A DNA stretch of 32,000 nt from Candidatus Saccharimonadota bacterium (GCA_016699935.1 CP064992.1:990001-1022000); one strand, 5' to 3'. Shown: positions 860 to 15,412, counted from the first letter of the stretch. Notes: generated by a model not told the origin, from the sequence alone. Program-made: numbers and translations.

Positions 860-1877
860 ATGATGAAGGGGTTTAAGCGAGTTGCAGCGGATATGTCCCG
901 GGTGAAAGTCCCCGCTGTTCCACGTGTGTCCCGGACGAAAATGACCGTTTTGTGGCTCGTGGGTGGGGCGCTCGTGGTAGGTTTGCTTGTGGTGCTATCT
1001 CTGAACCATTCGTTTCCACTTTTGCAGACACGCGGTGAAATAGCGAACCGGCAGCGCGATTTGCTGGTATTTGCGACGGCGCTGGCACTGCTTGTGCTGG
1101 TGCCGGTGTACTTCATGATATTTACGTTTGCCTGGCGGTACCGAGCGGGGCACAAACAAGATTACAAGCCAGAGTGGGACACGCACAAAGGGTATGAGGC
1201 GCTCTGGTGGGGTATACCTATTGCCATCATTAGCGTGCTCGCCGTCGTGACGTGGGTGACTAGCCATAGTTTGGACCCATTCAAGCCACTTGCCAGCAGC
1301 CAAAAACCACTGCAAGTGCAGGTGGTGGCGCTACAATGGAAGTGGCTGTTTATCTACCCTGAACAAGGTGTCGCAAGCGTGAACGAAGTGGCCTTCCCCG
1401 CTAGCCGACCAGTGGAATTCACCATGACGAGCGATGCGCCGATGAATAGCTTCTGGATACCGCAGCTTGCAGGCCAAATTTACGTTATGAGTGGCATGTC
1501 GACCAAACTGCACGTGGTGGCCGATGTACCGGGCGTGTACCAGGGGATGTCGTCGAATATCAGCGGTAAAGGCTTTGCCGACATGAAGTTTAAAGGCGCG
1601 GGCAATGACCGCACGTGATTTTGACTCGTGGATAGCTACTGCATACGCTAACGAGCAGTTAACACAAGAGCGTTACGATATGCTCACCAAACCAAGTACG
1701 AACACGGTTTCGTACTTTCGCGCGCAAGATCAGACTGTCTATGACAATGTTATCATGAAGTATATGCATAGTACGGCGCCAAATGAAGTGAAAGCATTAG
1801 AGAATAAAGCACCATCCCGCGCGGGTAATGGAATGAAATTGGGCACCACATGGAGGGCATGCACCAATGAGCTATGA
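860..1877 (+). pseudogene. cyoA: cytochrome bo3 ubiquinol oxidase subunit II (CyoA), frame broken once as sequenced
   Basis: ORF 860-1618 is colinear with CyoA up to ...GKGFADMKFK. The C-terminal part (ARAMTARDFDSWIA ... YFRAQDQTVYDNVIMKYMH) continues in ORF 1605-1877, frame +1. Dropping one G at 1595-1596 gives KFKARAMTARDFDSW, matching E. coli MKFKAIATPDRAAFDQW (recalled from memory). The start codon is uncertain (860, 893 or 941). Confidence 0.85.
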
Positions 1878-1923
1878 CTTACGAGACATGAGACAAAAAG
1901 CTTCGCGCATAAGTACTCCATTA

Positions 1924-1951
1924 CTCATGACTCATGACTCATGTCTCATGA
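1924..1951. repeat. heptamer tandem repeat (CTCATGA)x4, third unit CTCATGT, in the cyoA-cyoB spacer
   Basis: Read directly: ctcatga ctcatga ctcatgt ctcatga, immediately upstream of the cyoB RBS. Confidence 0.9.
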
Positions 1952-1970
1952 CTCTCCAGGGAGGTATACG

Positions 1971-3950
1971 ATGATTTTTGCTGATCTGCTTGGGAAGATG
2001 GAGTGGAGCTATTTCTGGCACGGTTGGGTGCAATTTGGTGGCCAGGCAGGACTGGTACTTGGTCTACTCACGGTAGTGGCGCTTCTGACATATTTCAAAA
2101 AGTGGCAATGGCTGTGGCGCGAGTGGTTGACCACGCAGGACGCCAAGCGTATCGGTGTGATGTACATTGTCGTATCGGTGGTGATGCTTTTGCGTGGGTT
2201 TGGCGACGCGATAATGATGAAACTCCAGCAAGCGCTTGCCAGCGGTAATTCCGATGGCTTCCTCGATGCCGAGCACTTTCAGCAGATATTCACGGCGCAC
2301 GGCACCATTATGATATTCTTTGTGGCGATGGGGCTGATGTTCGGCATCATTAACCTCGTTCTGCCGCTAATGCTTGGTGCTCGCGATGTTGCCTTCCCGA
2401 CACTGAATTCCGTCAGTTTTTACCTGTATTTTGCTGGTGTGGTGTTGGTAAATCTTTCGCTTGTATTCGGTGAGTTTGGTGCGGTCGGCTGGCTGGCCTA
2501 CCCGCCGTTGAGCGAGCTCGCCTACAGCCCTGGTCCCGGTGTAGACTACTGGCTGTGGAGCATACAAATCGCTGGAGTGGGTAGTTTGCTGAGTGGCATA
2601 AATTTCATCGTGACCATCTTGAAACTTCGCGCTAAAGGCATGTCACTCATGAAGATGCCCATTTTCGCCTGGAGTGTGCTTGGCGCTATGATGCTCGTGG
2701 TGGTGGTATTCCCCATTCTCACTGCAACGCTATTTATGCTTTCACTTGACCGCGCAATGGGCATGCACTATTTTACGGCTGACCTTGGTGGCAATGCCAT
2801 GATGTACATTAACCTCATTTGGGCGTGGGGTCACCCGGAGGTGTACATACTGGTGCTGCCTGCATTTGGCATGTACAGCGAGATTGTGGCGACCTTAAGC
2901 CGCAAGCGACTGTTTGGCTACACCAGCATGGTGTGGGCGCTCATGTGCATCACAGTGCTGTCGTTCCTGGTGTGGGCGCACCACTTTTTCACTATGGGCG
3001 CGGGCGGCAATGTGAACGCGTTTTTTGGCATCATGACCATGGTCATCGCCATCCCAACTGGGGTGAAAGTGTTCAACTGGCTGTTTACAATGTACAAGGG
3101 TCGCATAGAGTTCATGACGCCCATGTGGTGGTTTATGGCCTTCGTGACGACTTTTCTTATAGGTGGAGCAACTGGCGTACTTCTGGCGGTACCAGCAATA
3201 GATTTCCAGGTACACAACAGCCTGTTCTTAGTAGCGCATTTTCACAATACCATCATCAGTGGCGTGGTGTTTGGCTATCTTGCAGGAATCGCCTACTGGT
3301 TCCCCAAAATCTTTGGGTTTCGATTGCATGAGCGGCTCGGTAAGACGGCGGTGACGTGTTGGGTGGTTGGCTTTTTGGTCACGTTCATACCCATTTACAT
3401 CCTTGGATTTATGGGTGCGACTAGGCGGCTTGATCACTATGACCCAAGCATGGGCTGGCAGTCGCTGTTTATTGTATCGGGTATCGGAACACTCATAATT
3501 GGTCTCGGTGTGGTGTTGCAGGTAGCTCAGCTGGTCTACAGCATATGGAAACGCCGAGAACTGCGAGATAAAACCGGTGATCCGTGGGGAGGGCGCACGC
3601 TTGAGTGGTCTGTGCCCTCGCCTGCGCCGCACTATAACTTTGCGCGTTTACCTGTCGTCACTGCCCGCGACGCATTTTGGGAGGCAAAACAAACCAAGCG
3701 GTCGCTGTATAGCGGGCCGTACACCGCATTTGAGCTTCCGCGAAATACTGGCATGGGTGTCTGGATTGGCGCATTCGCTTGTTTGTTTGGGTTTGCCGTG
3801 ATCTGGCACCTGTGGTGGCTAGCGGTGCTGGTGCTTTTAGGTATAGTAGTGACGCTCATTCGCCGTACTTTTGAGGAAGATACAGAGTACCATGTGACTG
3901 CGGCAGAGGCAAAACGACTCGATGTGGCTGCGACGAAAGGACAGGTATGA
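1971..3950 (+). CDS. cyoB: cytochrome bo3 ubiquinol oxidase subunit I (CyoB)
   Basis: Colinear with E. coli CyoB over the whole length, including [15 protein letters not shown] and HFHN metal-ligand motifs. RBS AGGGAGG at 1958-1964 favours ATG 1971 over the ORF-track ATG 1941. Confidence 0.95.
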
Positions 3951-4585
3951 GCCAAGCACGACCTCAAACTTCTGCTTTGCACGTTGGAGCACAGAAGAAC
4001 CCAAAAAGGCTGGAGGCGCCGCCGTAGATAAGACGAAGGGAACACTCGGGTTTTGGATATATCTCATGACCGATTGCGTGCTGTTCGCGAGTTTATTTGC
4101 AACATTTATGGTGCTGCGCGGAGGCACGGCTGGCGGGCCGGACGGCAAGGACATCTTTGACCTGTCGTTTGTGCTCGTAGAAACAGTGTTGCTCCTGCTG
4201 AGTAGCCTTGCGAGCGGTATGGCATTGCTTGCGGCACACGCTGGACATAGAACACACACTTTGCGTTGGCTCGAGGCGACAGGTGTGCTGGGTGTGGCCT
4301 TTCTCAGCTTGGAATTGTTTGAGTTTAGCACGCTTGTGGCGGAAGGCCATAGCTGGACGCAGAGTGCATTCCTATCGTCGTATTTTGGGCTAGTCGGTAC
4401 ACATGGGCTGCATATCTTTGCTGGACTACTCTGGTTAGGTGGCACCTGGCTGTACATATACAAACGTGGTTTGAGCGGTCGACTTTATGAGCAGGCTTAC
4501 CATGTTTACGATGTTTTGGCATTTCCTTGATATTGTCTGGATTGGTATATTCACCATCGTCTACTTACTGGGGTTATCTAAATGA
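3947..4585 (+). pseudogene. cyoC: cytochrome bo3 ubiquinol oxidase subunit III (CyoC), two frame breaks as sequenced
   Basis: The core (GFWIYLMTDCVLFASLFATF ... GLVGTHGLHIFAGLLW) lies in ORF 3922-4530. The conserved C-terminus LTMFTMFWHFLDIVWIGIFTIVYLLGLSK* is in frame +1 (4496-4585), and its TGA overlaps the cyoD ATG (ATGA at 4582-4585). The likely start is ATG 3947, overlapping the cyoB stop (ATGA). It reads [20 protein letters not shown] in another frame, joining at the A5 run 4003-4007. Confidence 0.85.
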
Positions 4586-4980
4586 AATTGTCAAAGCACA
4601 TCCAACCACTGCCAAATTTCCGAAAAGCAAGCGCGGCGACGTATGTGGCTGGGTTTGCGCTATCGGTTGTGCTGACACTGGCGTCGTTTGCCTTAGTGTG
4701 GGCGTACCGCGCAGCCGAAGAGGTGGTGTTTAGCCGTGGCGTTCTGATTGGCCTCCTGGCTGTTGCTGCCATTATGCAGATACTAGTGCAGGTCTTGTTT
4801 TTCTTGCACGTATCGACAGAGCGCCGCGTCCGAATAAACCTGTATGCTGGGGCCTTTACCGTGTTTGTGGTACTGTGCTTGGTGATTGGTTCAATCTGGA
4901 TTATGCAAAACCTTGACTACAATATGATGCCTCGTGACATAACTGAGATGGTCGAACACGACGAAAGCCTTTCACAGTAA
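4582..4980 (+). CDS. cyoD: cytochrome bo3 ubiquinol oxidase subunit IV (CyoD)
   Basis: 132-aa three-TM protein. YVAGFALSVVLT, QVLFFLH and VIGSIWIMQNLDYNMM are colinear with E. coli CyoD. Confidence 0.9.
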   Translation: MKLSKHIQPLPNFRKASAATYVAGFALSVVLTLASFALVWAYRAAEEVVFSRGVLIGLLAVAAIMQILVQVLFFLHVSTERRVRINLYAGAFTVFVVLCLVIGSIWIMQNLDYNMMPRDITEMVEHDESLSQ

Positions 4981-5120
4981 ATGACCAAAACTCAAGCATT
5001 AAAGACCAGGCACTATTTCAATTGCGCAACGACTCAAGGGGCTTTCCCGAGACTTTCGGACATCATGTCATTGCTCAGTCAGTGGTCCTGGCGTTTTGAT
5101 TATTACGAAAGAGGTATGGG

Positions 5121-5977
5121 ATGAGAGTAAAAGACTTTGTAATAGTGGCGAAGCCCGGGATAGTATTTGGCAATGTTTTTGCTGGTGTCGGAGGGTTTTT
5201 TGTTGGTTCACCTGATGTGGTGAAGTGGCCTGCTCTGTTTGGTTTGATTGCTGGCATGACGGCAATCATTGCAGCCTCGTGTGTGGTCAATAACTATCTC
5301 GATGCAGACATAGACGCACGCATGAAACGTACGGCTAAACGGCCATCGGTGACAGGTGTCATTCCTCTTCGAGTTGGACGAATCTACGCTGCGATGCTGT
5401 ATGCTCTAGGATTTGTGTTGCTGCTATGGCTTACCGGTGTCCCCACAGCGTTGATTGGTTTGTTTGGTGCTGTTATGTACACAATGGTGTATGGCTACGC
5501 CAAGCGCCGTACCCCATGGGCAACATTCATTGGCGCATTACCTGGTGCTACACCGCCGCTGGCTGGCTACGTAGCGGCGACTGGCCGGTTTGATGAGGCG
5601 GCCTGGCTGCTTTTTATCATTATGCTTGCCTGGCAAATGCCGCATTTTCACGCCATTGCTATTCGACGGCTTGCAGATTATACAGCGGCAAACATTCCAG
5701 TTATGCCAGGCGTACATGGACTCCCACGTACTGTATGGGAAATGCGGTTTTTGGTTTGGTATTCATAAGCGCCTGTTACCTGCTGGCACGCTGGGGTCAC
5801 GCGGGCTTTATGTTTGGCCTAGCGACGGTTGCCGTAGGTCTATACTGGTTGCAGCCCATGTTCAGCCCCCGCTGGCGACGTGACCGTGAAGATATCGCTA
5901 AAATTGTTTTCAAACGCTCCCTGCTTGTCCTGATGGTACTAAACACCTTCATGACCCTCTCGCATGTGCTGCTATAG
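5121..5977 (+). pseudogene. cyoE: protoheme IX farnesyltransferase / heme O synthase (CyoE), one frame break as sequenced
   Basis: ORF 5121-5768 (VAKPGIVFGNVF, NNYLDADIDARMKRT, WQMPHFHAIAI, ANIPVMP) continues in ORF 5735-5977 (frame -1). Lengthening the T5 run 5748-5752 by one base gives a colinear 286-aa CyoE. RBS AAGAGG at 5107-5112. Confidence 0.85.
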
Positions 5978-6297: not shown

Positions 6298-7224
6298 ATG
6301 GTTATGGTTCGTTTAGAGAAAAAAATGATTCGTCCGGTTGTTTCGCTTGGTTTCGTTGCTCTGGTAGCAGTGTTTGTCTGGCAAAACTGGGAAACGTTTG
6401 GACAGAGTATAAAGGTAATAAAAAGTGCTTCGTTGGATGATTTCTGGTTGGCGATTCCCTTGGTTGGCCTTACCTTTTTACTCGCAGTGTTTTCGTATGG
6501 TTTTTGGCTTTCCGGCGGCTAAAGCTACGGGAGCTACTGATCGTTGAGCTTGCAGCAGCGTTTATAAATCGTTTAATCCCCTCTGGCTTAGGCGGATTGG
6601 GCGTGCACGGCCTGTACCTACACAAACGGCGCCATTCGGTCGCAGAAGCAACCGCGGTGGTAAGTATCAATAACCTCCTCGGAATGAGTGTTCACTTACT
6701 TTTGCTTGGGTTTATTCTGGTGGCTGGATCTGCTGGCCAGTTACACCTGGGATGGTCACAAAAACAGGGGTGGGTATTACTTGGGATTGGTTTCGTGATT
6801 GGAGCGGCACTGCTAATGCGGCGCGCTAGGCGCATAGTAATTCGCTTTGTGCGAAACTTGCTAGTTAGCCTGCGTCGGTATGAACGTCAGCCGCACAGAC
6901 TCGTTTACGCTGCGCTGCACTGTGCGCTCTTACGATCACCAATGTGCTCATCCTCCATTTGGCTGCTCGTAATTTTGGCGTGTGGCTCGACCTTCCCAGC
7001 TGTTTCTCGTCTACACAGGTGGCGTCTTGCTCGGTGCGGCCGTACCGACTCCAGGCGGTCTTGCGGGTGTTGAAGCTGGGCTTGTGGGTGGTTTCATGGC
7101 TTACGGTGTGGCCGGTACCACCGCCATAGCAATCGCCCTCGCCTTTCGCCTGGCTACCTACTGGCTCCCAATGCTACCCGGAGTCATAGCTTTGTTTGCG
7201 GCAAATAGAAAACACTTGATCTAA
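6298..7224 (+). pseudogene. UPF0104 / lysyl-PG-synthase-TM-like (flippase-like) polytopic membrane protein, about three frame breaks as sequenced
   Basis: Pieces in frame 1 (6298-6522), frame 0 (6504 to ~6930), frame 2 (~6920-7006: LTITNVLILHLAARNFGVWLDLPS) and frame 1 (6982-7224) read as one protein. The C-terminal AVPTPGGLAGVEAGLVGGFMAYGV...AFRLATYWLPMLPG is the family signature. Confidence 0.6.
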
Positions 7225-7279: not shown

Positions 7280-7641
7280 TGGGGTTATCAAGTGGTAAGG
7301 CACCAGCTGTTTGAGCGCTGAAAGCGCGAGTAAATATTCAAACGGTCCTGGACCAAAACATTACCAGTTGGCGGACCCGCACCGTACATTTCACATCATT
7401 GGGGGTTGGCCAAGTGGTAAGGCACCAGCTGTTTGAGCGCTGAAAGCGCGAGTAAATAATCAAACGGTCCTGGACAAAACATTACCAGTTGGCGGACCCG
7501 CACCGCACATTTCACATCATTGGGGTTGGCCAAGTGGTAAGGCACCAGCTGTTTGAGCGCTGAAAGCGCGAGTAAATAATCAAACGGTCCAGGACCAAAA
7601 CATTACCAGTTGGCGGACCCGCACCGCACATTTCACATCAT
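7280..7641 (+). repeat. three tandem 120/121/121-bp units, each starting with the 5' half of tRNA-Gln and containing an antisense tRNA-Gln half
   Basis: Unit starts at 7280, 7400 and 7521. Units are near-identical with a few substitutions and indels. See findings. Confidence 0.95.
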
Positions 7642-7714
7642 TGGGGTTGGCCAAGTGGTAAGGCACCAGGTTTTGGTCCTGGCATTCGGGGGTTCGAATC
7701 CCTCACCCCAGCCA
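7642..7714 (+). tRNA. tRNA-Gln, anticodon UUG, CCA encoded
   Basis: TGGGGTTGGCCAAGTGGTAAGGCACCAGGTTTTGGTCCTGGCATTCGGGGGTTCGAATCCCTCACCCCAGCCA. The anticodon arm is CCAGG-TTTTGGT-CCTGG and the T loop is TTCGAAT. Closely resembles E. coli tRNA-Gln2 (from memory). The acceptor/T-stem junction looks 1 nt short by hand folding. Confidence 0.9.
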
Positions 7715-7833: not shown

Positions 7834-10800
7834 CTATTCAGTAACTACGAAACTTGAATCAACAAAGTGCATATTATCTAGTTCGGTCTTTGTTTCTGGC
7901 AATGTGTAAACAATGACATTATTGCCGAAGAAGTCTTTGATCGTATCTCCATCATTGGCAAACAATTTGTTTTCTCTCATCATCTTGGCTTCAGCGTATC
8001 CGACATACATAGGGTAGTATGTTGTATCACCGATTATTGCAGGTACCGTAGATTTTATATCGTCTTTGAGCTTCTCGGGTACCAGGCCTTCTATGAAGTA
8101 GAACATCTTGGTAGTGCCATTGGTTTCATCGACAACTTGTAAGCGGGCGGCATTTTCAATATCCTTAAATGAATTTGGTGACAAGAAATGATATGAATCC
8201 GCAAGGGTGCCAGTTGGTTTCAATATGCCCCGCACGGTGACATTTTTTGCCCCGAACAAGTCTGGCAGTACATCTCCAACATTCTTGAACAGACCTTCTT
8301 CTTTCATCATCTTCGCTTCACTGCTTCCTATGACGACGCTTTGCCCCGTCAACTCACTTGTTCCACTTTCTACCTGAAATGAGCCAGGCAGTGACGACAC
8401 CGACGCAAACAGCTTAGGCGTTTCGTTTTCGGTGAAGGCAACGACATTTTCGCTACTGGCAATAGTGTCATTTATAGACTTTTGACTTTCGATTGACACG
8501 GTTGCGCTATTAGCTGACATTGCCCCTTGTGCATCCATCTCAGAACTCAGTTTCGCAAACGATATAAACAAGGCAGTGAACAGCACGGCCATTACTATAG
8601 GAGCGACGGCTGAGATCCAATTTCGTTTACCTGGTCGATAGGTACGCAATGTTAACGAGTTTGTAACCACCGATATCGAGCTAAGCGCCATTGCAATTCC
8701 AGCGAGCTCGGGTCTCAATACTAGCCCCGCAAATGCAAATACTCGGGCGGCTATAGGTATACCAACAACGTTGTAGAACAAGGCGAAGAACAAATTCTGA
8801 CGAATTTTGCTAACTGTCGCCTTAGAGATCTGGATCGCCTCTGCCACATCGCGCAGGTCGTTTTTGATGATGACAATGCCGCCAGCTTCCATGGCGACAT
8901 CAGTGCCATTCCCCATAGCTATACCCAGATCAGCTTGTGCAAGTGCAGGCGCATCGTTTATGCCATCACCTACCATCGCAACAACTTTACCGCCCTGCTG
9001 AATACGCACAATATTTGTAGCCTTGTCCTCTGGCAACACTTCAGCAAGTACATTGGTTATGCCTACTTGAGCAGCAATAGCCTGTGCGGTTCGTTTATTA
9101 TCTCCCGTAATCATCCAAGTCTCTATGTCTCGAGCATGAAGAGCGTCAATAGCCGCTTTAGAGGTCTCTTTGACTGTGTCCGCAACGGCAATTACACCTA
9201 CGATTTCAGTCTCCGTAGCGAGGATCATTGCGGTCTTCCCCCCAGTCTCAAGCCGTTCAATTTTTTTCTCAAGACGATCCAGCGCTAGCCCGAGCTTTTC
9301 GGTCACCAGTCGACGATTGCCAAAATAGTACCATTTATCATGTAGTTTCGCTTTAACCCCATGGCCAGGGATAGCCTCGAACCCGTTTGTTTCAATTAGC
9401 GTTACGCCTTCTTCTTCTGTGTGACGGTAAATCGCTTCGGCAAGCGGGTGCTCGCTGGCTTTCTCTATGCTGGCAGCAATCTGAAGCACGTCATCCTCGT
9501 CAAATGCGCCCAATGCAATGATGTCTGTTACTTCTGGCTTACCGTTTGTGAGCGTACCTGTTTTGTCAAAAACTATGGTGTTAACCTTACAGGCAATTTC
9601 TAATGGTTCTCCACCTTTGATAAGAATGCCATTCTCAGCAGCCTTACCTGTACCCACCATCAGGGCTGTTGGTGTAGCTAATCCCAGCGCACATGGACAC
9701 GCGATGACTATTACTGCAGTAAACGCCATGATTGCATAGGCGAATGTTGCTCCGAGCAGAAAATACCACACGACGAAAGTCAGAATGGCTATGCCGATGA
9801 CTGCCGGGACAAACCACGATGAGATACGGTCTGCAAAGCCCTGAATCGGCGCCTTGGAGCCCTGCGCATCTTCGATGAGGCGAATGATACGAGACAGGGT
9901 AGTTTCGCTTCCGACACGGGTTGCTGTGAATTCAAAACTTCCAGTTTTATTGATCGTTGCCCCAACGACAGTATTTCCAACTATTTTTTCAACGGGTAAA
10001 CTTTCACCAGTTATCATGGATTCGTCAACCGCAGATGTACCTTTACTGATCACGCCATCTACCGGAACTTTTTCACCAGGACGAACAAGAATCGTCTCGC
10101 CATTTACTACTTGGTCAATGGGTATATCGATGGTCACGCCGTCACGTATAACACGCGCGGTTTTGGCCTGCATCCCCATCAACTTTTTGATGGCATCAGA
10201 TGTTCTATTTTTAGCACGGGCCTCAAGCCACTTTCCCAAGATAACAAACGTGATCAGAAATGCAGCGGTTTCAAAATACTGCTCGGGAATCTTTTCACCA
10301 TTCAGTCCTATCAGTGACTGGTTTGTCACTGCATAGATAATGAAGTAGATTAAGCTATAGAAAAATGCTGTCGATGTACCAATAGCAATAAGACTATCCA
10401 TGTTAAATGTCTTCATCTTGAAGCCAGACCACATTCCTTTATAGAATCCGGCACCGATAATGAACTGGATAGGAAGCGTCAAGATAAGTGATACGATAGC
10501 AAAATAGGGTGGCAGTGTCTGGCCACCAGGCAAAGCCGGAAAGAAATCCAGCAACATGAAGTAGAGCATGGGCAAACTCAGCACCATACTAATGAGAAAC
10601 TTATTGCGAAGGCTGGTTATAGCATGTGCTCGGTTCATCTTCTCTTTTGCTTCTGCTTCTTCGCTGTCGAGCATTTCGGCGCGATACCCAGCCTTTTTAA
10701 CCGCGTCGAGAAGCGCAACGGGCTGCACAGAACCATCCGTATTTACGAGTGCCTTCTCAGCAGCAAAATTGACATTCGCCTTGGAAACACCGGGTACTTT

Positions 10801-11436
10801 AGACAGTTGCTTTTCAATAATACCCGCACACGACGAGCAGTGCATGCCATAAATTGCCAATCTTGATGTCGCAGATCCTTGCGAAACTGGTTGAGGAAGT
10901 TGGATGGGTGCTGATGGTTGTGGCGCACTATCAGCTTTATTTTTTGGCATAAAGATGGATGATAGGGCCTGCACGATGCTGGTTGCAGCCACCGCTTGTT
11001 TTGACGGTGTATTCTCGTCAATATCGTGATCTTTTCCATCTATGGTAATTGATTTCGTGTCGCTCATTTTACCGATAAATACTGGTTTTCCGTTTGAATC
11101 AAGGGAAACAGTGCCATCGGCAACAGTTTGCAGTTCAACTTTCACATGCTGTGGATGCTTCGCCGGTATGTCGATAGTTTCGCTAGCTGATGAATCTGAA
11201 GGGCTCGCCGACAGCGATTTGCCACTAACTATAGAGGCGTCGTACCCCGCAGTTTTTACTGCAGAAAGTATACCGTCTTCATTTACGACTTTCTCGTCAA
11301 ACATTACTTCGCCACCCTTATCTGTGGTAGTTATGGTGGAGTGGTGAATTCCAGGTAAGTCTTCTAGTTCCGATGCGATGAGCTTTTCGCAGGACTCACA
11401 GTGCATCTTAGGAACTGATAGCTGTATTGTTTTCAT
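7834..11436 (-). CDS. copA: copper-translocating P1B-type ATPase with two N-terminal HMA domains, an extra C-terminal TM helix and a 237-aa repeat-containing tail
   Basis: MHCESC and MHCSSC HMA motifs, [37 protein letters not shown]. Single uninterrupted 1200-aa ORF. RBS GAGGAT lies upstream of the ATG. Confidence 0.95.
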
Positions 11437-11438
11437 AA

Positions 11439-11648
11439 TTATTTATCCTCAGCTCGGTAGCTGCTATCACCAAAAGCAGTGTTAATTTCTTGGGCGGTGA
11501 TAGGTCGTTCGGCCTGAACATTTGCTGTTTTGGTTTCTAGATCTACCTGTGCATCAAGCACGCCGTTAATATTCTTTATTCGTTTTGTCGTCAGTTTCGC
11601 GCATGCCTCGCATGTCATGCCACTGATAGTAAATGTTTGACTCGTCAT
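11439..11648 (-). CDS. copZ: copper chaperone, HMA domain
   Basis: 69 aa with a GMTCEAC metal-binding motif. Its stop is 2 nt before the copA ATG. Confidence 0.9.
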
Positions 11649-11657
11649 ATTCGTCCT

Positions 11658-13002
11658 TTACTCCGTTACTGTTATTGAACCGCGAGGCACACCCATGGCA
11701 CACGCAATTGTATAGGTGCCTGGTTTTGTTGCGGTAAAAGTTAATTCTATCTTCTTACCCTTCTTCAAATACTGCGGGCTATCGTCGAGACCGATGATCA
11801 TGATCGTACTCATACAACCTTGGCCATCCTCTTTCACATCAACCACTAGGGTTGTTTTTTGTCCTGCCTTGGCGGTAAATGTGCTCGGGGCAATATCTTC
11901 TTTCAGTTTAAATGTCGTATTTAAGATTACTGAGCCTTCGGAGGACTCCTGCTGTACTGCCGTATTTACCATCGGCTTTGAGCTATCGAGGAATCGATTG
12001 AGACCAGCGAGAGTAAACCCGTTTGTGAAATTGATCAGTGCCATTGCGACAACGACCACTCCAACTATGCGAAAGAACCGCTGTGCAAATGCTCCCTTAA
12101 CTACTGACGTAAGACCACCTAGGGTTAATAGTCCCGGAGTTGTACCAATCGCAAATGCACCCATAATTACCGCTGCCTGCAATGGATTCCCCGTACTCAC
12201 GGCAAATAACTGCATGGCCTGTGTGAAACCACACGGCAGAAAGAAAGTGGCCGCTCCCATTAGAAACGCGTTTTTGTGGCTATACTCACGTTCTTTTCGA
12301 GTGTGTATGCTTTTTTTTGGCAAGGCCACTCGGCAGGGTGAGCCCACGCGTTATCCGCGGGAATATCTCTGTCAGTTGCAACCCGAGTACCAGCATGACA
12401 GCCCCGACGGCAATCGTGATAAGACCGAGCAATGTACCCTTGAGTGCAAACGCTGAGCCAATCGCGCCAATGAATGCACCGAATGCGATGAATGAGACTA
12501 TCCGACCAGCATTGAAAAATAAATGTGGACGGAATTTCTGTAACGCTGTCTCGGTTGGGTGGTTCTCGGCATATTTAGAAGCAACGCTTATGACAAGGCC
12601 GCCGATCAGAGCCATGCAGGTTGAGAACCCTGCAGTCAATCCTACCAAAAGTGCCATCGTCCCGGTGCTGCTATTACTGGTTGTAGAGGAGGTTAATTTA
12701 TCTATTCCAAATACCTGAAAGAGCACATATAGTCCCAGAACGACTATGATGCCAATCGCAAAATCTTTCCAAATTCGCTCGTTACGTGTGAAGAGAGGCT
12801 TTTGTTCACTTTCGTACCCAACTTCATATCCTGCAGCCTGCACGGCTCTCTCAATATCCTTATCTGATACTTGTTCCACGCTGATTATTGTTGCTGAGTT
12901 AGATTTGAGGCTTGCTCTAGCGGAAGTAACACTAGGGATTGATTCTAGCTCCTCAGCTATGAGTAGCTCACATGATGCGCAGTGCATGCCTTTGATTGGC
13001 AC
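11658..13002 (-). pseudogene. HMA domain - DsbD_2/TauE-SafE-like permease - cupredoxin-like domain fusion, frame broken in an A8 tract as sequenced
   Basis: ORF 12286-13002 carries GMHCASC, TM helices and GFSTCMALIGG. ORF 11658-12347 carries FFLPCGFTQAMQ, TM helices and a beta-rich C-terminus (KPGTYTIACAMGVPRGSITV). They join inside the T8 run (plus strand) at 12311-12318. The start (GTG 13002) is uncertain. Confidence 0.75.
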
Positions 13003-13170
13003 AGTTTTTCGAGGGCGTGCGATTGCGAATCGTCGTCTCGCTGCATGAGTCGATTCCTTCGAGATGATTTATGTTTTGTCATCGCTGACGCCTTGTACGA
13101 AGATTTATTTTTAATGATTCCATAGTAGTTCCTTCTTTGTAGTTAATAGATACAGTCAAAGAAGGTTGGT

Positions 13171-13530: not shown

Positions 13531-13616
13531 AGTGTGCATCCTACTCACAAATATACTCCAAATAAATAACATATTCAATAGTGCGCATATATGTATATTA
13601 TGGTACACTTAGTGAC
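13531..13616. promoter_or_regulatory. divergent promoter/operator region between the two metal-homeostasis transcription units
   Basis: 86-bp AT-rich spacer with the palindromes CATATATG and TATT-C-AATA, and AATATAC/GTATATT inverted repeats. No operator is proven. Confidence 0.4.
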
Positions 13617-14111
13617 ATGAGCAGTGATATATTATCTATCCAAGAAGAAATCTTTAAACTTATTGGTAACCAGAAACGGCTTGAGATACTTCTTTTACTA
13701 GAAAACCGTAAGCTAAACGTTGGTGAGATGACTGACATGCTAGGTCTCCGACAGGCAAATCTCTCACAACATCTCACCCTTCTCCGCGCACAACATCTTG
13801 TTGAAGTACGAAAGAAAGGGCGTGAATCTTTTTATAGCCTTGCCGATGATAGTATCGCAGTCGCGATTCGAACAATCCATGACTTTCTTCGCAAGACCCA
13901 CCGTATTGATGCGCCTTTTGATAGCAATTCCTTGTTCCCAATTGTCACTGATCCAGTTTGCGGCATGCGATTCAGCGCTTCGAAAGCATTTTCGCATATT
14001 GATAAAAACGGTAAACAGTACCATTTTTGTGCGAGTGGCTGCGAGTCTTCCTTTAAGGCTAGCGTAAAACTAACTAATGAAGAGCAATTTGCTCAAACCA
14101 TTCACGCATAG
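13617..14111 (+). CDS. ArsR/SmtB-family metalloregulator fused to a C-terminal YHS/TRASH metal-binding domain
   Basis: The wHTH region reads KRLEILLLLENRKLNVGEMTDMLGLRQANLSQHLTLLRAQHLV. The C-terminal DPVCGM...YHFCASGC is a YHS/TRASH motif. ATG 13617 is preferred to GTG 13581. Confidence 0.85.
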   Translation: MSSDILSIQEEIFKLIGNQKRLEILLLLENRKLNVGEMTDMLGLRQANLSQHLTLLRAQHLVEVRKKGRESFYSLADDSIAVAIRTIHDFLRKTHRIDAPFDSNSLFPIVTDPVCGMRFSASKAFSHIDKNGKQYHFCASGCESSFKASVKLTNEEQFAQTIHA

Positions 14112-14120
14112 GAGGAAAAC

Positions 14121-14764
14121 ATGAAAAAACTCAATTTGTAGCCTTTGGGTTGATAATTATACTGTTGTTAGTTGTAATATTGCTTCTGAACAATAAATCA
14201 CAGAATATGTTGAACTCTTCTACTGAAACAGGTCAAAATTCTCAGTCAGGTAGTCAAACAGGCAGTATGTATGCCAGCATGACGGGCGATCAGTTCGACA
14301 AAGCATACCTAACTGATATGATTGCACATCATCAAGGCGCCCTCAACATGGCAAGCCAAGCCCGAGAGCTGGCAACAAAATCAGAAATTCGAACCCTAGC
14401 TGATGCGATACTTTCTTCTCAAGCTACTGAGGTTCAACAAATGATGGATTGGCAACAGGAATGGGAGTATTCAACAACTGATATCAGTAACCCGCATGCA
14501 GGCCATATGATGGAATCAAGCGGTAGTATGGGCGACGATATGGCCAATATGGAGGCAAAGCTAAACGGTTTGAGTGGCGAAGCCTACGACAAAGAATTTT
14601 TAAAACAGATGATTCTGCATCATCAACAAGCGGTTGATATGTCGAAATATGCAGATACAAACGCCAAGCATCAGGAAGTGAAAGATTTAGCACAAGCGGT
14701 CATTTCTGCACAAGAAAAAGAAATTGCTGACATGAAGAGTTGGCAACAAAAGTGGGGATTCTAA
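14121..14764 (+). CDS. DUF305 family protein (two HH-motif repeats), N-terminus displaced by a 1-nt frame problem
   Basis: FDKAYLTDMIAHHQGALNMA and YDKEFLKQMILHHQQAVDMS are DUF305 signatures. AGGAGG at 14110-14115 plus ATG 14121 is out of frame with ORF 14150-14764 unless the A6 run 14124-14129 is A7. Confidence 0.8.
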
Positions 14765-14770
14765 AGGCAT

Positions 14771-15412
14771 ATGCGCAAGGTGCTGGTGGGCGGGGCTTTA
14801 CTAATCCTAATTACTGGAGCCACTTATCTTACGCCCACCATTCAAGATTTCATTAGCAACAAACAGACACCTACTAAAGTTGCCACTAGCAAGACACAGG
14901 CGAAAGTAGCTGAGTCCAGAGACCCTCATGCTCATGATTTTAGCGACGTTGATTATGCCCAAAAGAAATTAATCCATCACCAATTAGGTGCCATGATTGC
15001 CGACAAAGCAAAAATTGATGCAACCAGGCCAGAAATACGACAACTAGCCGAGCAAGTAAGCTCACAGGAAACGGAACGAGCAAACGTCTATACGGCACTG
15101 CTCACTTCATGGGAAGAAAGCTACTTGAATATTACCGATTTCCCGGAAACAGGTGGCTGTAATGGTTACCCAACGTTTTCTGGCATGTTACCTCATCTTG
15201 ATGTTGGAAAATATCGGTTATCGAGCGGCGAAAGCGTAGACACAACATTTTTAGCCCTATTAATAGAGCATCATAAAAAAGCCACTGATCTAATGAAACT
15301 TGAAGGTGCAAAAATAGGGTATGGCGAGTTAGTTAAGCTGCGCGAGACTTCACAGGAAGATTACAAAGCAGAAATAAGCACCTTTGAAACGTTACAAAAA
15401 TCAATTCTATAG
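14771..15412 (+). CDS. DUF305-like protein, divergent paralog with N-terminal TM/signal
   Basis: DVDYAQKKLIHHQLGAMIA and VDTTFLALLIEHHKKATDLM repeats. N-terminus MRKVLVGGALLILITGATYL. Confidence 0.7.
   Translation: MRKVLVGGALLILITGATYLTPTIQDFISNKQTPTKVATSKTQAKVAESRDPHAHDFSDVDYAQKKLIHHQLGAMIADKAKIDATRPEIRQLAEQVSSQETERANVYTALLTSWEESYLNITDFPETGGCNGYPTFSGMLPHLDVGKYRLSSGESVDTTFLALLIEHHKKATDLMKLEGAKIGYGELVKLRETSQEDYKAEISTFETLQKSIL

Follow-up and report, generated by a model that had tools for sequence, protein, structure and literature searches.

A CopA-type copper ATPase from Candidatus Saccharimonadota with a ninth transmembrane helix and a widely conserved, predicted exoplasmic two-repeat domain

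A copA gene was analyzed in a 32,000-nucleotide stretch of DNA from a Candidatus Saccharimonadota bacterium (GCA_016699935.1, CP064992.1:990001-1022000), the whole of which is referred to as the window. The gene encodes a complete P1B-1 Cu(I) ATPase, which continues in frame into one more transmembrane (TM) helix, the ninth (TM9), and a hydrophilic tail of two similar repeats (Table 1). As judged from sequence comparisons and predicted topology, this well-known pump is combined with an exoplasmic partner domain that is undescribed yet conserved widely, in both bacteria of the Candidate Phyla Radiation (CPR) and DPANN archaea. In the likeliest of the readings considered, the outside module may accept or release Cu(I) on the exit side of the pump; this reading is put forward tentatively, at a confidence just short of even.

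The fused copper ATPase and its stand-alone counterpart

The 1200-aa protein was matched by Pfam to E1-E2_ATPase (3e-59, 199.8 bits), Hydrolase of the HAD type (6e-36, 125 bits) and two copies of HMA (90.1 bits), and no Pfam match was obtained for its last 263 residues. The catalytic motifs of the P-type class were located at residues 476 (TGES, A domain), 624 (DKTGT, the phosphorylation site) and 823 (GDGINDAP, hinge), and an SEHPL motif was located at residue 661. Subgroup 1B-1 of the Argüello classification is characterized by CPC in M4, N-x6-YN-x4-P in M5 and M-x2-SS-x5-[NS] in M6. These Cu(I) membrane signatures were present at residues 580, 881 and 916, respectively, with Asn as the last residue of the M6 signature. 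The complete Cu-ATPase motif set, which had been claimed in an earlier reading made from the DNA alone (the sequence-only reading), was found in full and in place within the 1200-aa open reading frame (ORF). By its motifs and domains, the protein is a genuine copper exporter of the P1B-1 group. The M6 segment ended with ...LTLRTYRP at residue 935, and the stretch of residues 919-935 that the earlier reading had named was located there. The region at 7837-8625, to which the same reading had drawn attention, corresponded to residues 938-1200. The in-frame TM helix and tail that it had proposed were confirmed, and the length of the tail was corrected from 237 to 239 aa (residues 962-1200). The CopA proteins of Legionella pneumophila, Escherichia coli and Archaeoglobus fulgidus share with the window protein the catalytic and TM motifs, the N-terminal HMA domains and a CopZ gene upstream; unlike them, the window protein adds TM9 and a module of ~240 aa that is predicted to be extracytoplasmic. 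P1B pumps are described in the reviews consulted with no ninth helix or outside domain, and the C-terminal extra described there is a cytoplasmic metal site, in A. fulgidus CopA (PMC10654040, PMC7558416).

Related loci were sought in one genome per species with a 7-sequence alignment as the query, and 80 loci were obtained. A single ORF of 900-1241 aa encoded the ATPase together with the TM helix and the domain in ~60 bacterial loci. The closest tails (82-87% identical) belonged to Saccharibacteria, and identity fell to ~29% in the other fused lineages, namely Falkow-, Gracili-, Peri-, Parcu-, Micro-, Collier-, Levyi- and Gottesmanbacteria, unclassified Patescibacteria and two Actinomycetota. 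Seven loci (L075-L081, each matching ~8001-8320) contained only one repeat of ~100 aa with the complete G-EA-MM...GD...FG...T-T-D-H motif. One repeat unit is evidently sufficient.

The fusion could in principle be an artefact of assembly or annotation, in which a lost stop codon or a frameshift joined copA to a separate downstream gene. The frame-shifted appearance of other window genes would agree with this explanation, and interruptions were found in two short metagenomic contigs. An in-frame TAA occurred inside the P domain of L001 (496-504), on a contig of 3x coverage, and a 1-nt frame change occurred in L002 (900-925) exactly at the CopA/TM9 junction, between ...NWLSA and APIVM.... In both contigs the ATPase, TM9 and the tail were still contiguous, with no intergenic spacer, and the two interruptions are most simply regarded as errors or decay in those contigs. 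Programmed frameshifting at the junction, for which L002 gave the prompt, was ruled out because every other locus was in frame. The evidence against an artefact was extensive. The exact 1200-aa protein had been recorded from independent sources, and its cluster at an identity of at least 90% contained 94 members from many independent contigs; the named members (6/40 read) were entered as "heavy metal translocating P-type ATPase", "copper-translocating P-type ATPase" or "Cu+-exporting ATPase". The length of 1200 aa was identical in six related Saccharibacteria genomes (L004 and L006-L010). Moreover, the M6-TM9 junction contained no spacer, start codon or ribosome-binding gap, and the sequence from the loop to TM9 was conserved. 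Because the same fusion occurs in the 94-member cluster and in ~60 species genomes with tail identities of 29-87%, a lost stop codon does not account for the in-frame continuation. The two-gene outcome that had been named as a refutation was not borne out in these comparisons, a complete CopA extended by a single additional TM helix and a tail of tandem repeats is a genuine architecture, and the probability of an artefact is practically negligible.

An exhaustive profile search yielded 195 cluster representatives, which fell into a fused class, including many fragments at contig ends, and a stand-alone class. The stand-alone class comprised ~54 representatives (245-280 aa), all of which had a TM helix at the N-terminus and 33-44% identity to the window tail. 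The 13 stand-alone cases of the species-genome scan all came from metagenome-assembled genomes (MAGs) of DPANN-type archaea (Woesearchaeota, Nanoarchaeota and unclassified archaea), where the protein had 259-291 aa and a single, N-terminal TM helix. The stand-alone gene directly adjoined a tail-less copA of 722-750 aa in 13/13 of these loci (the copA of L064 ends with the contig), and the identity of the tail-less copA of L054 was confirmed by Pfam. The two genes were on the same strand, the stand-alone gene usually being immediately upstream and twice immediately downstream, and they often overlapped or were tens of bases apart. Hence, the domain does occur on its own, in 13 archaeal loci and ~54 further representatives, which answers the search that the sequence-only reading had proposed. 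Because the domain is fused to the pump in bacteria and separate beside copA in archaea, this fusion/fission (Rosetta-stone) pattern marks it, at the level of gene organization, as a partner that serves the copper pump specifically. In evolutionary terms, this partner is old and a unit of its own.

According to its gene linkage and predicted topology, the archaeal form has the features of an accessory subunit, i.e., a separate single-pass protein with an exoplasmic domain that is tied to one pump. With its single-pass layout, predicted N-in/C-out orientation, folded exoplasmic domain and genetic tie to one pump, it resembles the beta subunits of Na,K- and H,K-ATPase and Cdc50 of the P4 flippases (PMC10654040). 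In contrast to them, the domain described here has no sequence or fold relation to either and also occurs in covalently fused form. In the reviews consulted, accessory subunits are described for P2C and P4 pumps only (PMC10654040), and the terminal metal-binding domains given there for P1B pumps are all cytoplasmic (PMC7558416).

Two observations concern the records of the family. Trp replaced the invariant Gly of the family in the members P0030 and P0100, and among the loci, L026, L042, L047, L052, L057, L072, L079 and L083 had an intact ORF only when TGA was read as Gly (table 25). These members and loci belong to lineages that recode UGA, such as Gracilibacteria, and their database translations were made with the wrong code. 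Furthermore, the labels Gammaproteobacteria, Bdellovibrionales and Methanosarcinales that third-party annotation (TPA) MAGs carried on CPR-like fused or DPANN-like split genes looked unreliable and were not trusted (L012, L013, L015, L020, L021, L028, L030, L033, L034, L038, L046, L061 and L065).

Predicted topology and the conserved Met/His motif

P1B ATPases have eight TM helices with both the N and C ends in the cytoplasm, as is known from CopA structures; one more helix therefore places the tail outside. The distribution of charged residues agreed strongly with this prediction by the positive-inside rule. In the fused forms (n = 60), the 12 aa ahead of the helix contained 4.0 K/R and 0.02 D/E, and those after it contained 1.25 K/R and 1.58 D/E. 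The corresponding values for the stand-alone forms (n = 13) were 2.85 K/R and 1.46 D/E ahead of the helix and 1.15 K/R and 0.92 D/E after it, and these proteins are predicted to have the layout of an N-terminal signal-anchor with an N-in/C-out orientation. The tail is thus predicted to lie outside the cell in both forms, and the outward orientation proposed in the sequence-only reading was supported by the 60 fused forms, the 13 stand-alone forms and the signal-anchor of the archaeal protein. If the hydrophobic segment did not span the membrane, the repeats would form a regulatory tail inside the cell, resembling the C-terminal metal-binding domain of A. fulgidus CopA; some CopA proteins do carry C-terminal cytoplasmic metal-binding domains (PMC7558416). 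The helix of 23 residues with a hydropathy above 2, the charge of +4 on its N-side versus a net negative C-side across 60 homologs, the signal-anchor at the start of the stand-alone form and the lack of CxxC, and indeed of any Cys, in the tail make a cytoplasmic tail very improbable. The artefact and the cytoplasmic tail are essentially excluded.

TM9 was itself conserved among the fused homologs (APIxM...F..F.FAK). Because of this conservation, TM9 is suggested to pack against the pump and to be more than a tether. The segment just outside the helix was also characteristic. A Met was present within 16 aa outside the TM helix in 57/60 fused and 57/66 stand-alone forms, and an SSxM motif was found just outside TM9 in 49/60 fused forms. 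A second Met usually followed some residues past SSxM in the linker of the window protein and its homologs. In the AlphaFold2 (AF2) model, the linker had predicted local distance difference test (pLDDT) values below 50 at model residues 22-39 (low through residue ~977 of the protein) and a helix at H45-57 (from residue ~982).

Both repeats of both classes contained the motif G-x2-E-A-x-M-M-x2-E-x-L-[FI]...G-D...F-F-G...G-[IV]-L-x2-T-x-T-x2-D-x2-H-[FIL], and EAKMM was located at residues 1040-1044 and 1149-1153 of the window protein. Conservation was counted over 392 distinct pooled repeats. The final Asp was kept in 391/392 repeats, the second Met in 383, the first Thr in 376, the Glu in 371, the His in 368 and the first Met in 331. 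The Met pairs noted in the sequence-only reading were conserved, and they co-varied with the conserved His. Of the 24 repeats that lacked His, 18 also lacked the first Met (odds ratio 22.7, p 2e-11, with shared ancestry ignored), and 8/9 repeats without the second Met were also without His. The joint loss of Met and His is not general decay because the Gly, Glu, Ala, Gly-Asp, Phe-Gly, Thr and Asp positions were retained in these repeats. With the average product correction (APC), the mutual information of Met1-His ranked 12 and that of Met2-His ranked 21 among 1275 long-range pairs, and the pairs above them mostly just separated repeat 1 from repeat 2. Among the proteins with two repeats (n = 163), Met-Met-His was present in both repeats of 122, and at least Met2 and His were present in one repeat of 161. 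Selection thus appears, from this pattern, to keep at least one intact Met/His site per protein.

The extracytoplasmic parts were free of Cys in 123/126 proteins and contained 4.1% Met, and the two His residues of the window tail were both within the motif. Cys-free Met/His sites are a hallmark of Cu(I) proteins in oxidizing compartments. A ligand set of the Cu(I)-chaperone type (Met and His, without Cys, anchored outside by prediction) is present in the family, the likeness being one of chemistry only. The proposed job of an outside Cu(I) acceptor and the Cys-free Met/His chemistry would be shared with CusF, CueP, CopC/PcoC and PCuAC, and CusF takes Cu(I) directly from CopA, binding it via Met and His (PMC7558416). 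Unlike these proteins, the tail gave no oligonucleotide-binding (OB), cupredoxin or beta-barrel match, and it is tethered or fused rather than soluble.

Predicted fold and alternative readings of the domain

The two divergent internal repeats reported in the sequence-only reading were real, with 25/58 identities (43%, E 1e-11) between them in BLASTP, and the family alignments extended each unit to ~100 aa. The AF2 model of the tail was built on seven sequences and had a mean pLDDT of 85 and a predicted template modelling score (pTM) of 0.77, but definition was poor for the TM helix and for ~15 residues at the start of the linker. The repeats mostly reached at least 90 per 10-residue block, the lowest value being 85. 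In the predicted fold, each repeat consisted of two N-terminal strands followed by a strand, a helix, a hairpin, a short helix and a strand.

No match to the PDB at E<=0.001 was found by Foldseek with either the model of the tail or that of repeat 2 alone. The best match of the two-repeat model was YbbP (9ge7_A, E 0.068, prob 0.97, 124 columns, root-mean-square deviation 4.3 A), followed by LolE (9rld_E/9rlc_E) and YbbP (9ge6_A), all of which are periplasmic domains of type VII ATP-binding cassette (ABC) permeases. For the repeat-2 model, LolC/LolE came first (7ark_C at E 0.12, then 7arh_C, 7ark_E and 9gvk_C; TM-scores 0.41-0.46). Over both models, the top matches had E 0.07-0.6 and TM-scores of 0.23-0.46. 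Among 28 diverse members of the family, Pfam MacB_PCD (PF12704) was the commonest family, yet it was matched by only 3/28, with a best E of 7.4e-5. The match in the homolog P0053 reached 20.6 bits, below the 27-bit cut-off, and covered the strand-helix-hairpin of repeat 2 at profile positions 123-172 of 207; hence, by the curated threshold, the domain does not belong to MacB_PCD. The window tail had no Pfam match to MacB_PCD at E<=10. When the family alignment was compared by hhalign with ~120 archaeal MacB-like periplasmic core domains, the probability was 2.8%, in a weak test with a narrow target (at least 63% identity), and the alignment set repeat 2 against the VVVIGGRLAKSYF...FRVVGIL segment, as expected. 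The family identity of the tail was sought in Pfam with the window tail itself and six homologs, in NCBIfam with 28 members and by means of PDB sequence profiles, and nothing meaningful was obtained. Two PDB profile matches, CRABP2 and an integron cassette protein (E 0.03-0.9), were judged to be noise.

The likeness to MacB_PCD consists of a strand-helix-hairpin pattern (hydrophobic-hydrophobic-G..A..hydrophobic...GD...V.G.L...D) in a domain that is predicted to be extracytoplasmic, right after a TM helix. Three independent weak signals agreed, none of them significant, and the tail is likely, though not proven, to be distantly related to the MacB/LolCE-type periplasmic core domain or to share a common structural motif with it. 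The resemblance to MacB/FtsX domains that the sequence-only reading had perceived is weakly supported: LolC, LolE and YbbP headed the Foldseek results and 3/28 members matched MacB_PCD, but all of these signals were insignificant and the window tail itself had no match. Differences from the known domains were also evident. Compared with MacB, LolC, LolE, YbbP and FtsX-like proteins, the tail appears to consist of two tandem similar units rather than the alpha/beta subdomains Porter and Sabre. Compared with the type VII ABC permeases, it has neither the FtsX 4-TM domain nor an ABC ATPase, and its partner is a P-type ATPase; no FtsX domain was found by Pfam in the CopA protein, and the partner gene was always copA, not one for an ABC ATPase. 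The domain follows a single TM helix at the protein end rather than being inserted between TM1 and TM2 as in the FtsX type. The Met-Met, FFG, TxT and His of the tail were missing from the MacB_PCD-type motif of one permease, in L054 (VVVIGGRLAKSYF...FRVVGILDD).

These fold signals bear on the main alternative, whose probability is well under even, namely that the domain binds no metal and is an accessory, beta-subunit-like part that stabilizes, folds or gates the pump, its motif being structural or a protein-interaction surface. A variant at the same level of confidence holds that the domain couples the pump cycle to an envelope partner (cell wall, S-layer or host surface) in the manner of FtsX/MacB. 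The only fold or family signals are those of the MacB, LolCE and YbbP periplasmic domains, whose ligands are proteins or lipoproteins and not metals, and the conservation of TM9 would be expected if it were packed against the pump. Furthermore, the single-pass exoplasmic subunits of P2C pumps and the Cdc50-type subunits of P4 pumps serve maturation and stability (PMC10654040), and the second Met is exchanged for Leu, Val or Ile like a core residue. Set against this are the strong preference for Met, rather than Leu, at two neighboring positions of the helix (383/392 and 331/392 repeats) and the joint disappearance of Met and His while the structural Gly, Ala, Phe and Asp persist. The juxtamembrane Met residues and the Cys-free, Met-rich composition are hard to explain by structure alone, and only Cu(I) pumps encoded in copper operons are associated with the domain.

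Several points weigh against the reading of the module as a Cu(I) acceptor. By analogy, the accessory subunits known for P-type ATPases (Na,K-ATPase beta and Cdc50) would suggest a role in assembly and stability, not substrate binding. No known copper-chaperone family or copper-binding fold was recognized in Pfam, NCBIfam, PDB sequences or Foldseek. The nearness of Met and His in space is suggested by co-variation only, and the co-loss statistics ignore phylogenetic non-independence. The second Met may be a core residue and partly structural because its counterpart in the MacB_PCD-type helix is a buried Leu position and because, when changed, it is replaced only by Leu, Val or Ile. The relation to MacB/LolCE, finally, is below significance in each single test and is weakly supported.

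Copper operon, proposed role and significance

The coordinates of the gene, its parts and the neighboring copper genes are given in Table 1.

Table 1. Features of the copA gene and the adjoining copper cluster in the window
Feature	Position	Strand	Details	Basis
Whole gene: CopA P1B-1 Cu(I) ATPase, ninth TM helix and predicted extracytoplasmic two-repeat tail	7834..11436	-	1200 aa + stop	ORF list, Pfam
HMA domain 1	11239..11427	-	N-terminal; CESC (CxxC) aa 13-16	Pfam, motif
HMA domain 2	10684..10860	-	aa 193-251; CSSC (CxxC) aa 200-203	Pfam best stretch, motif
ATPase core	8632..10629	-	aa 270-935; eight-TM region and A, P, N domains	Pfam, motifs
Ninth TM helix	8554..8622	-	aa 939-961 (23 residues); basic cytoplasmic loop of ~10 residues before it	Hydropathy above 2
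Juxtamembrane linker	8452..8553	-	aa 962-995; SSxM...M motif	AF2 model, Met census
Repeat 1	8161..8451	-	aa 996-1092; alpha/beta unit	AF2 model, family alignments
Repeat 2	7837..8151	-	aa 1096-1200	BLASTP vs repeat 1; own AF2 model, pLDDT 83.7
Repeat 1 motif	8185..8328	-	G1037-x2-E-A-x-M-M...G-D1055...F-G1062...T1075-x-T-x2-D1080-x2-H1083-F	Conservation
Repeat 2 motif	7864..8001	-	G1146-x2-E-A-x-M-M...G-D1164...F-F-G1171...T1182-x-T-x2-D1187-x2-H1190-F	Conservation
CopZ-like HMA chaperone gene	11439..11648	-	Directly upstream of copA, same operon	Pfam HMA 1.5e-12
HMA + DsbD_2 membrane protein + cupredoxin-like domain gene	11658..13082	-	Two frame changes; position upstream of copA conserved where copA encodes the tail	Pfam
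ArsR-family HTH + YHS-domain regulator gene	13581..14111	+	Divergent	Pfam HTH_5 1.3e-9, YHS 1.1e-6
Two DUF305 genes	14150..15412	+		Pfam 2.5e-51, 8.6e-16; synteny with L008, L004, L007

The DNA of the copper cluster was 83-87% identical to that of several Saccharibacteria MAGs. The gene for the HMA, DsbD_2 and cupredoxin-like domains was a single ORF of 475 aa in the close relatives L008 and L004, and the tblastn frames in the window were -1/-3/-1; the window gene is either a pseudogene or affected by indel errors. Equivalents of this gene adjoined copA in L001, an HMA and DsbD_2 gene was present in L069, and ORFs of 600-640 aa with an N-terminal CxxC at the same position in L012, L022 and L058 were likened to it by position and CxxC only. 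The regulator with ArsR and YHS domains is likely metal-responsive, and together with the DUF305 genes it probably provides the regulation and further parts of the copper response; the regulator gene followed by two DUF305 genes was syntenic in related Saccharibacteria loci. The wider cluster was conserved, with the HMA membrane protein (with DsbD_2 and often a cupredoxin-like domain), the CopZ-like HMA protein and ArsR or winged helix-turn-helix regulators.

A cyo-type haem-copper quinol oxidase operon (COX2-, COX1-, COX3- and COX4_pro-like genes) with a haem O synthase gene was located at 860-5977 (+), 2-10 kb away from the copper cluster. The UbiA-family haem O synthase gene consisted of two overlapping ORFs (5121-5768 and 5735-5977, +), and an LPG_synthase_TM-like gene was split into three (6298-6522, 6504-7073 and 6982-7224, +). 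The broken DsbD_2, haem O synthase and LPG_synthase_TM-like genes suggest genome frameshifts or an error-prone assembly. A tRNA-Gln gene (anticodon TTG) was present on the opposite strand at 7641-7713 (+), 121 bases past the copA stop codon. The surroundings, which include the quinol oxidase, haem O synthase, a VanY-type carboxypeptidase and glycosyltransferases, fit an aerobic Saccharibacterium.

Because the quinol oxidase operon and the haem O synthase gene are near the copper cluster, exported copper may also be used to assemble the oxidase in the window organism. In a further reading, the domain would serve metallation, in a way comparable with CcoI or CtpA, rather than detoxification, and would deliver exported Cu(I) to extracytoplasmic or membrane cuproproteins, e.g., the co-encoded cupredoxin or the window quinol oxidase. 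P1B ATPases that supply Cu to oxidases and the metallation of SodCII by CueP via CopA/GolT are established (PMC7558416), and a cupredoxin-domain protein, fused to or beside an HMA-DsbD_2 protein, was conserved next to the genes for CopA with the tail. On the other hand, the CopZ, ArsR/YHS-type regulator and DUF305 genes of the operon are typical of resistance clusters, and no oxidase operon was noted beside such copA genes in the inspected related loci, the flanks of which were not scanned for oxidase families. Metallation is, moreover, a sub-case of the Cu acceptor reading with another destination, and as the function of the domain it is decidedly unlikely.

If the outside module is a Cu(I) acceptor or release device, its action may be pictured as follows. 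A dedicated extracytoplasmic partner, composed of TM9, the Met-bearing linker and two modules, would have been acquired as a permanent part of the CopA polypeptide. The module would be tethered by TM9 beside M6 and would lie over the outer mouth of the pump. Cu(I) leaving the exit site in the E2P state would be picked up first by the juxtamembrane Met residues and then held at the Met/His sites of the repeats, with Asp, Glu and Thr around them. It would subsequently be let go away from the membrane or handed to the co-encoded cupredoxin and DsbD_2 proteins. Such outward release would limit the re-entry of Cu(I) in small cells without an outer membrane or a Cus-type relay. Because the fold is probably distantly MacB/LolCE-like, movements of TM9 during the pump cycle could also reposition the domain. 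A bolder version, in which CPR bacteria and DPANN archaea possess an obligatory exoplasmic subunit of a Cu(I) P1B pump that derives from the same ancestral module as the MacB/LolCE/FtsX domain and, mechanically coupled through TM9 to the E1/E2 cycle, captures Cu(I) on Met/His sites where it leaves the pump and ejects it, is conceivable though unlikely.

The tail domain was represented by no model in Pfam or NCBIfam. In a full-text literature search of partial coverage, in which absence is not proof, no account was found of a P1B pump that has both a ninth helix and a domain outside the cell, or of a copA-linked MacB_PCD-like protein. Two stand-alone proteins that were looked up were annotated as "hypothetical protein", and the fused ones were named plain ATPases. 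The suggestion in the sequence-only reading that the architecture was undescribed is consistent with these results, but the architecture is widespread and not unique to the window.

To our knowledge, the exit of Cu(I) from a P1B pump and its outside acceptor are settled only for Gram-negative bacteria (CusF and CueP), and we know of no Cu(I) acceptor for cells without an outer membrane. The fused or neighboring partner would provide a natural stoichiometric complex of pump and acceptor for structural and kinetic work, and it would be the first accessory exoplasmic subunit of a heavy-metal P-type ATPase. If a coupled Cu(I)-capturing subunit is indeed present, heavy-metal pumps would gain their first substrate-handling "beta subunit", and P-type ATPases would provide their first case of a recruited type VII ABC mechanotransmission domain. 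Defining the domain family would also improve the annotation of hundreds of CPR and DPANN genomes. The sharing of the domain by these ultra-small, mostly host-attached organisms is another case of gene sharing between the two groups. Furthermore, because the domain is common to CPR bacteria and DPANN archaea, it hints that the handling of copper at the cell surface matters for an ultra-small, host-attached lifestyle.

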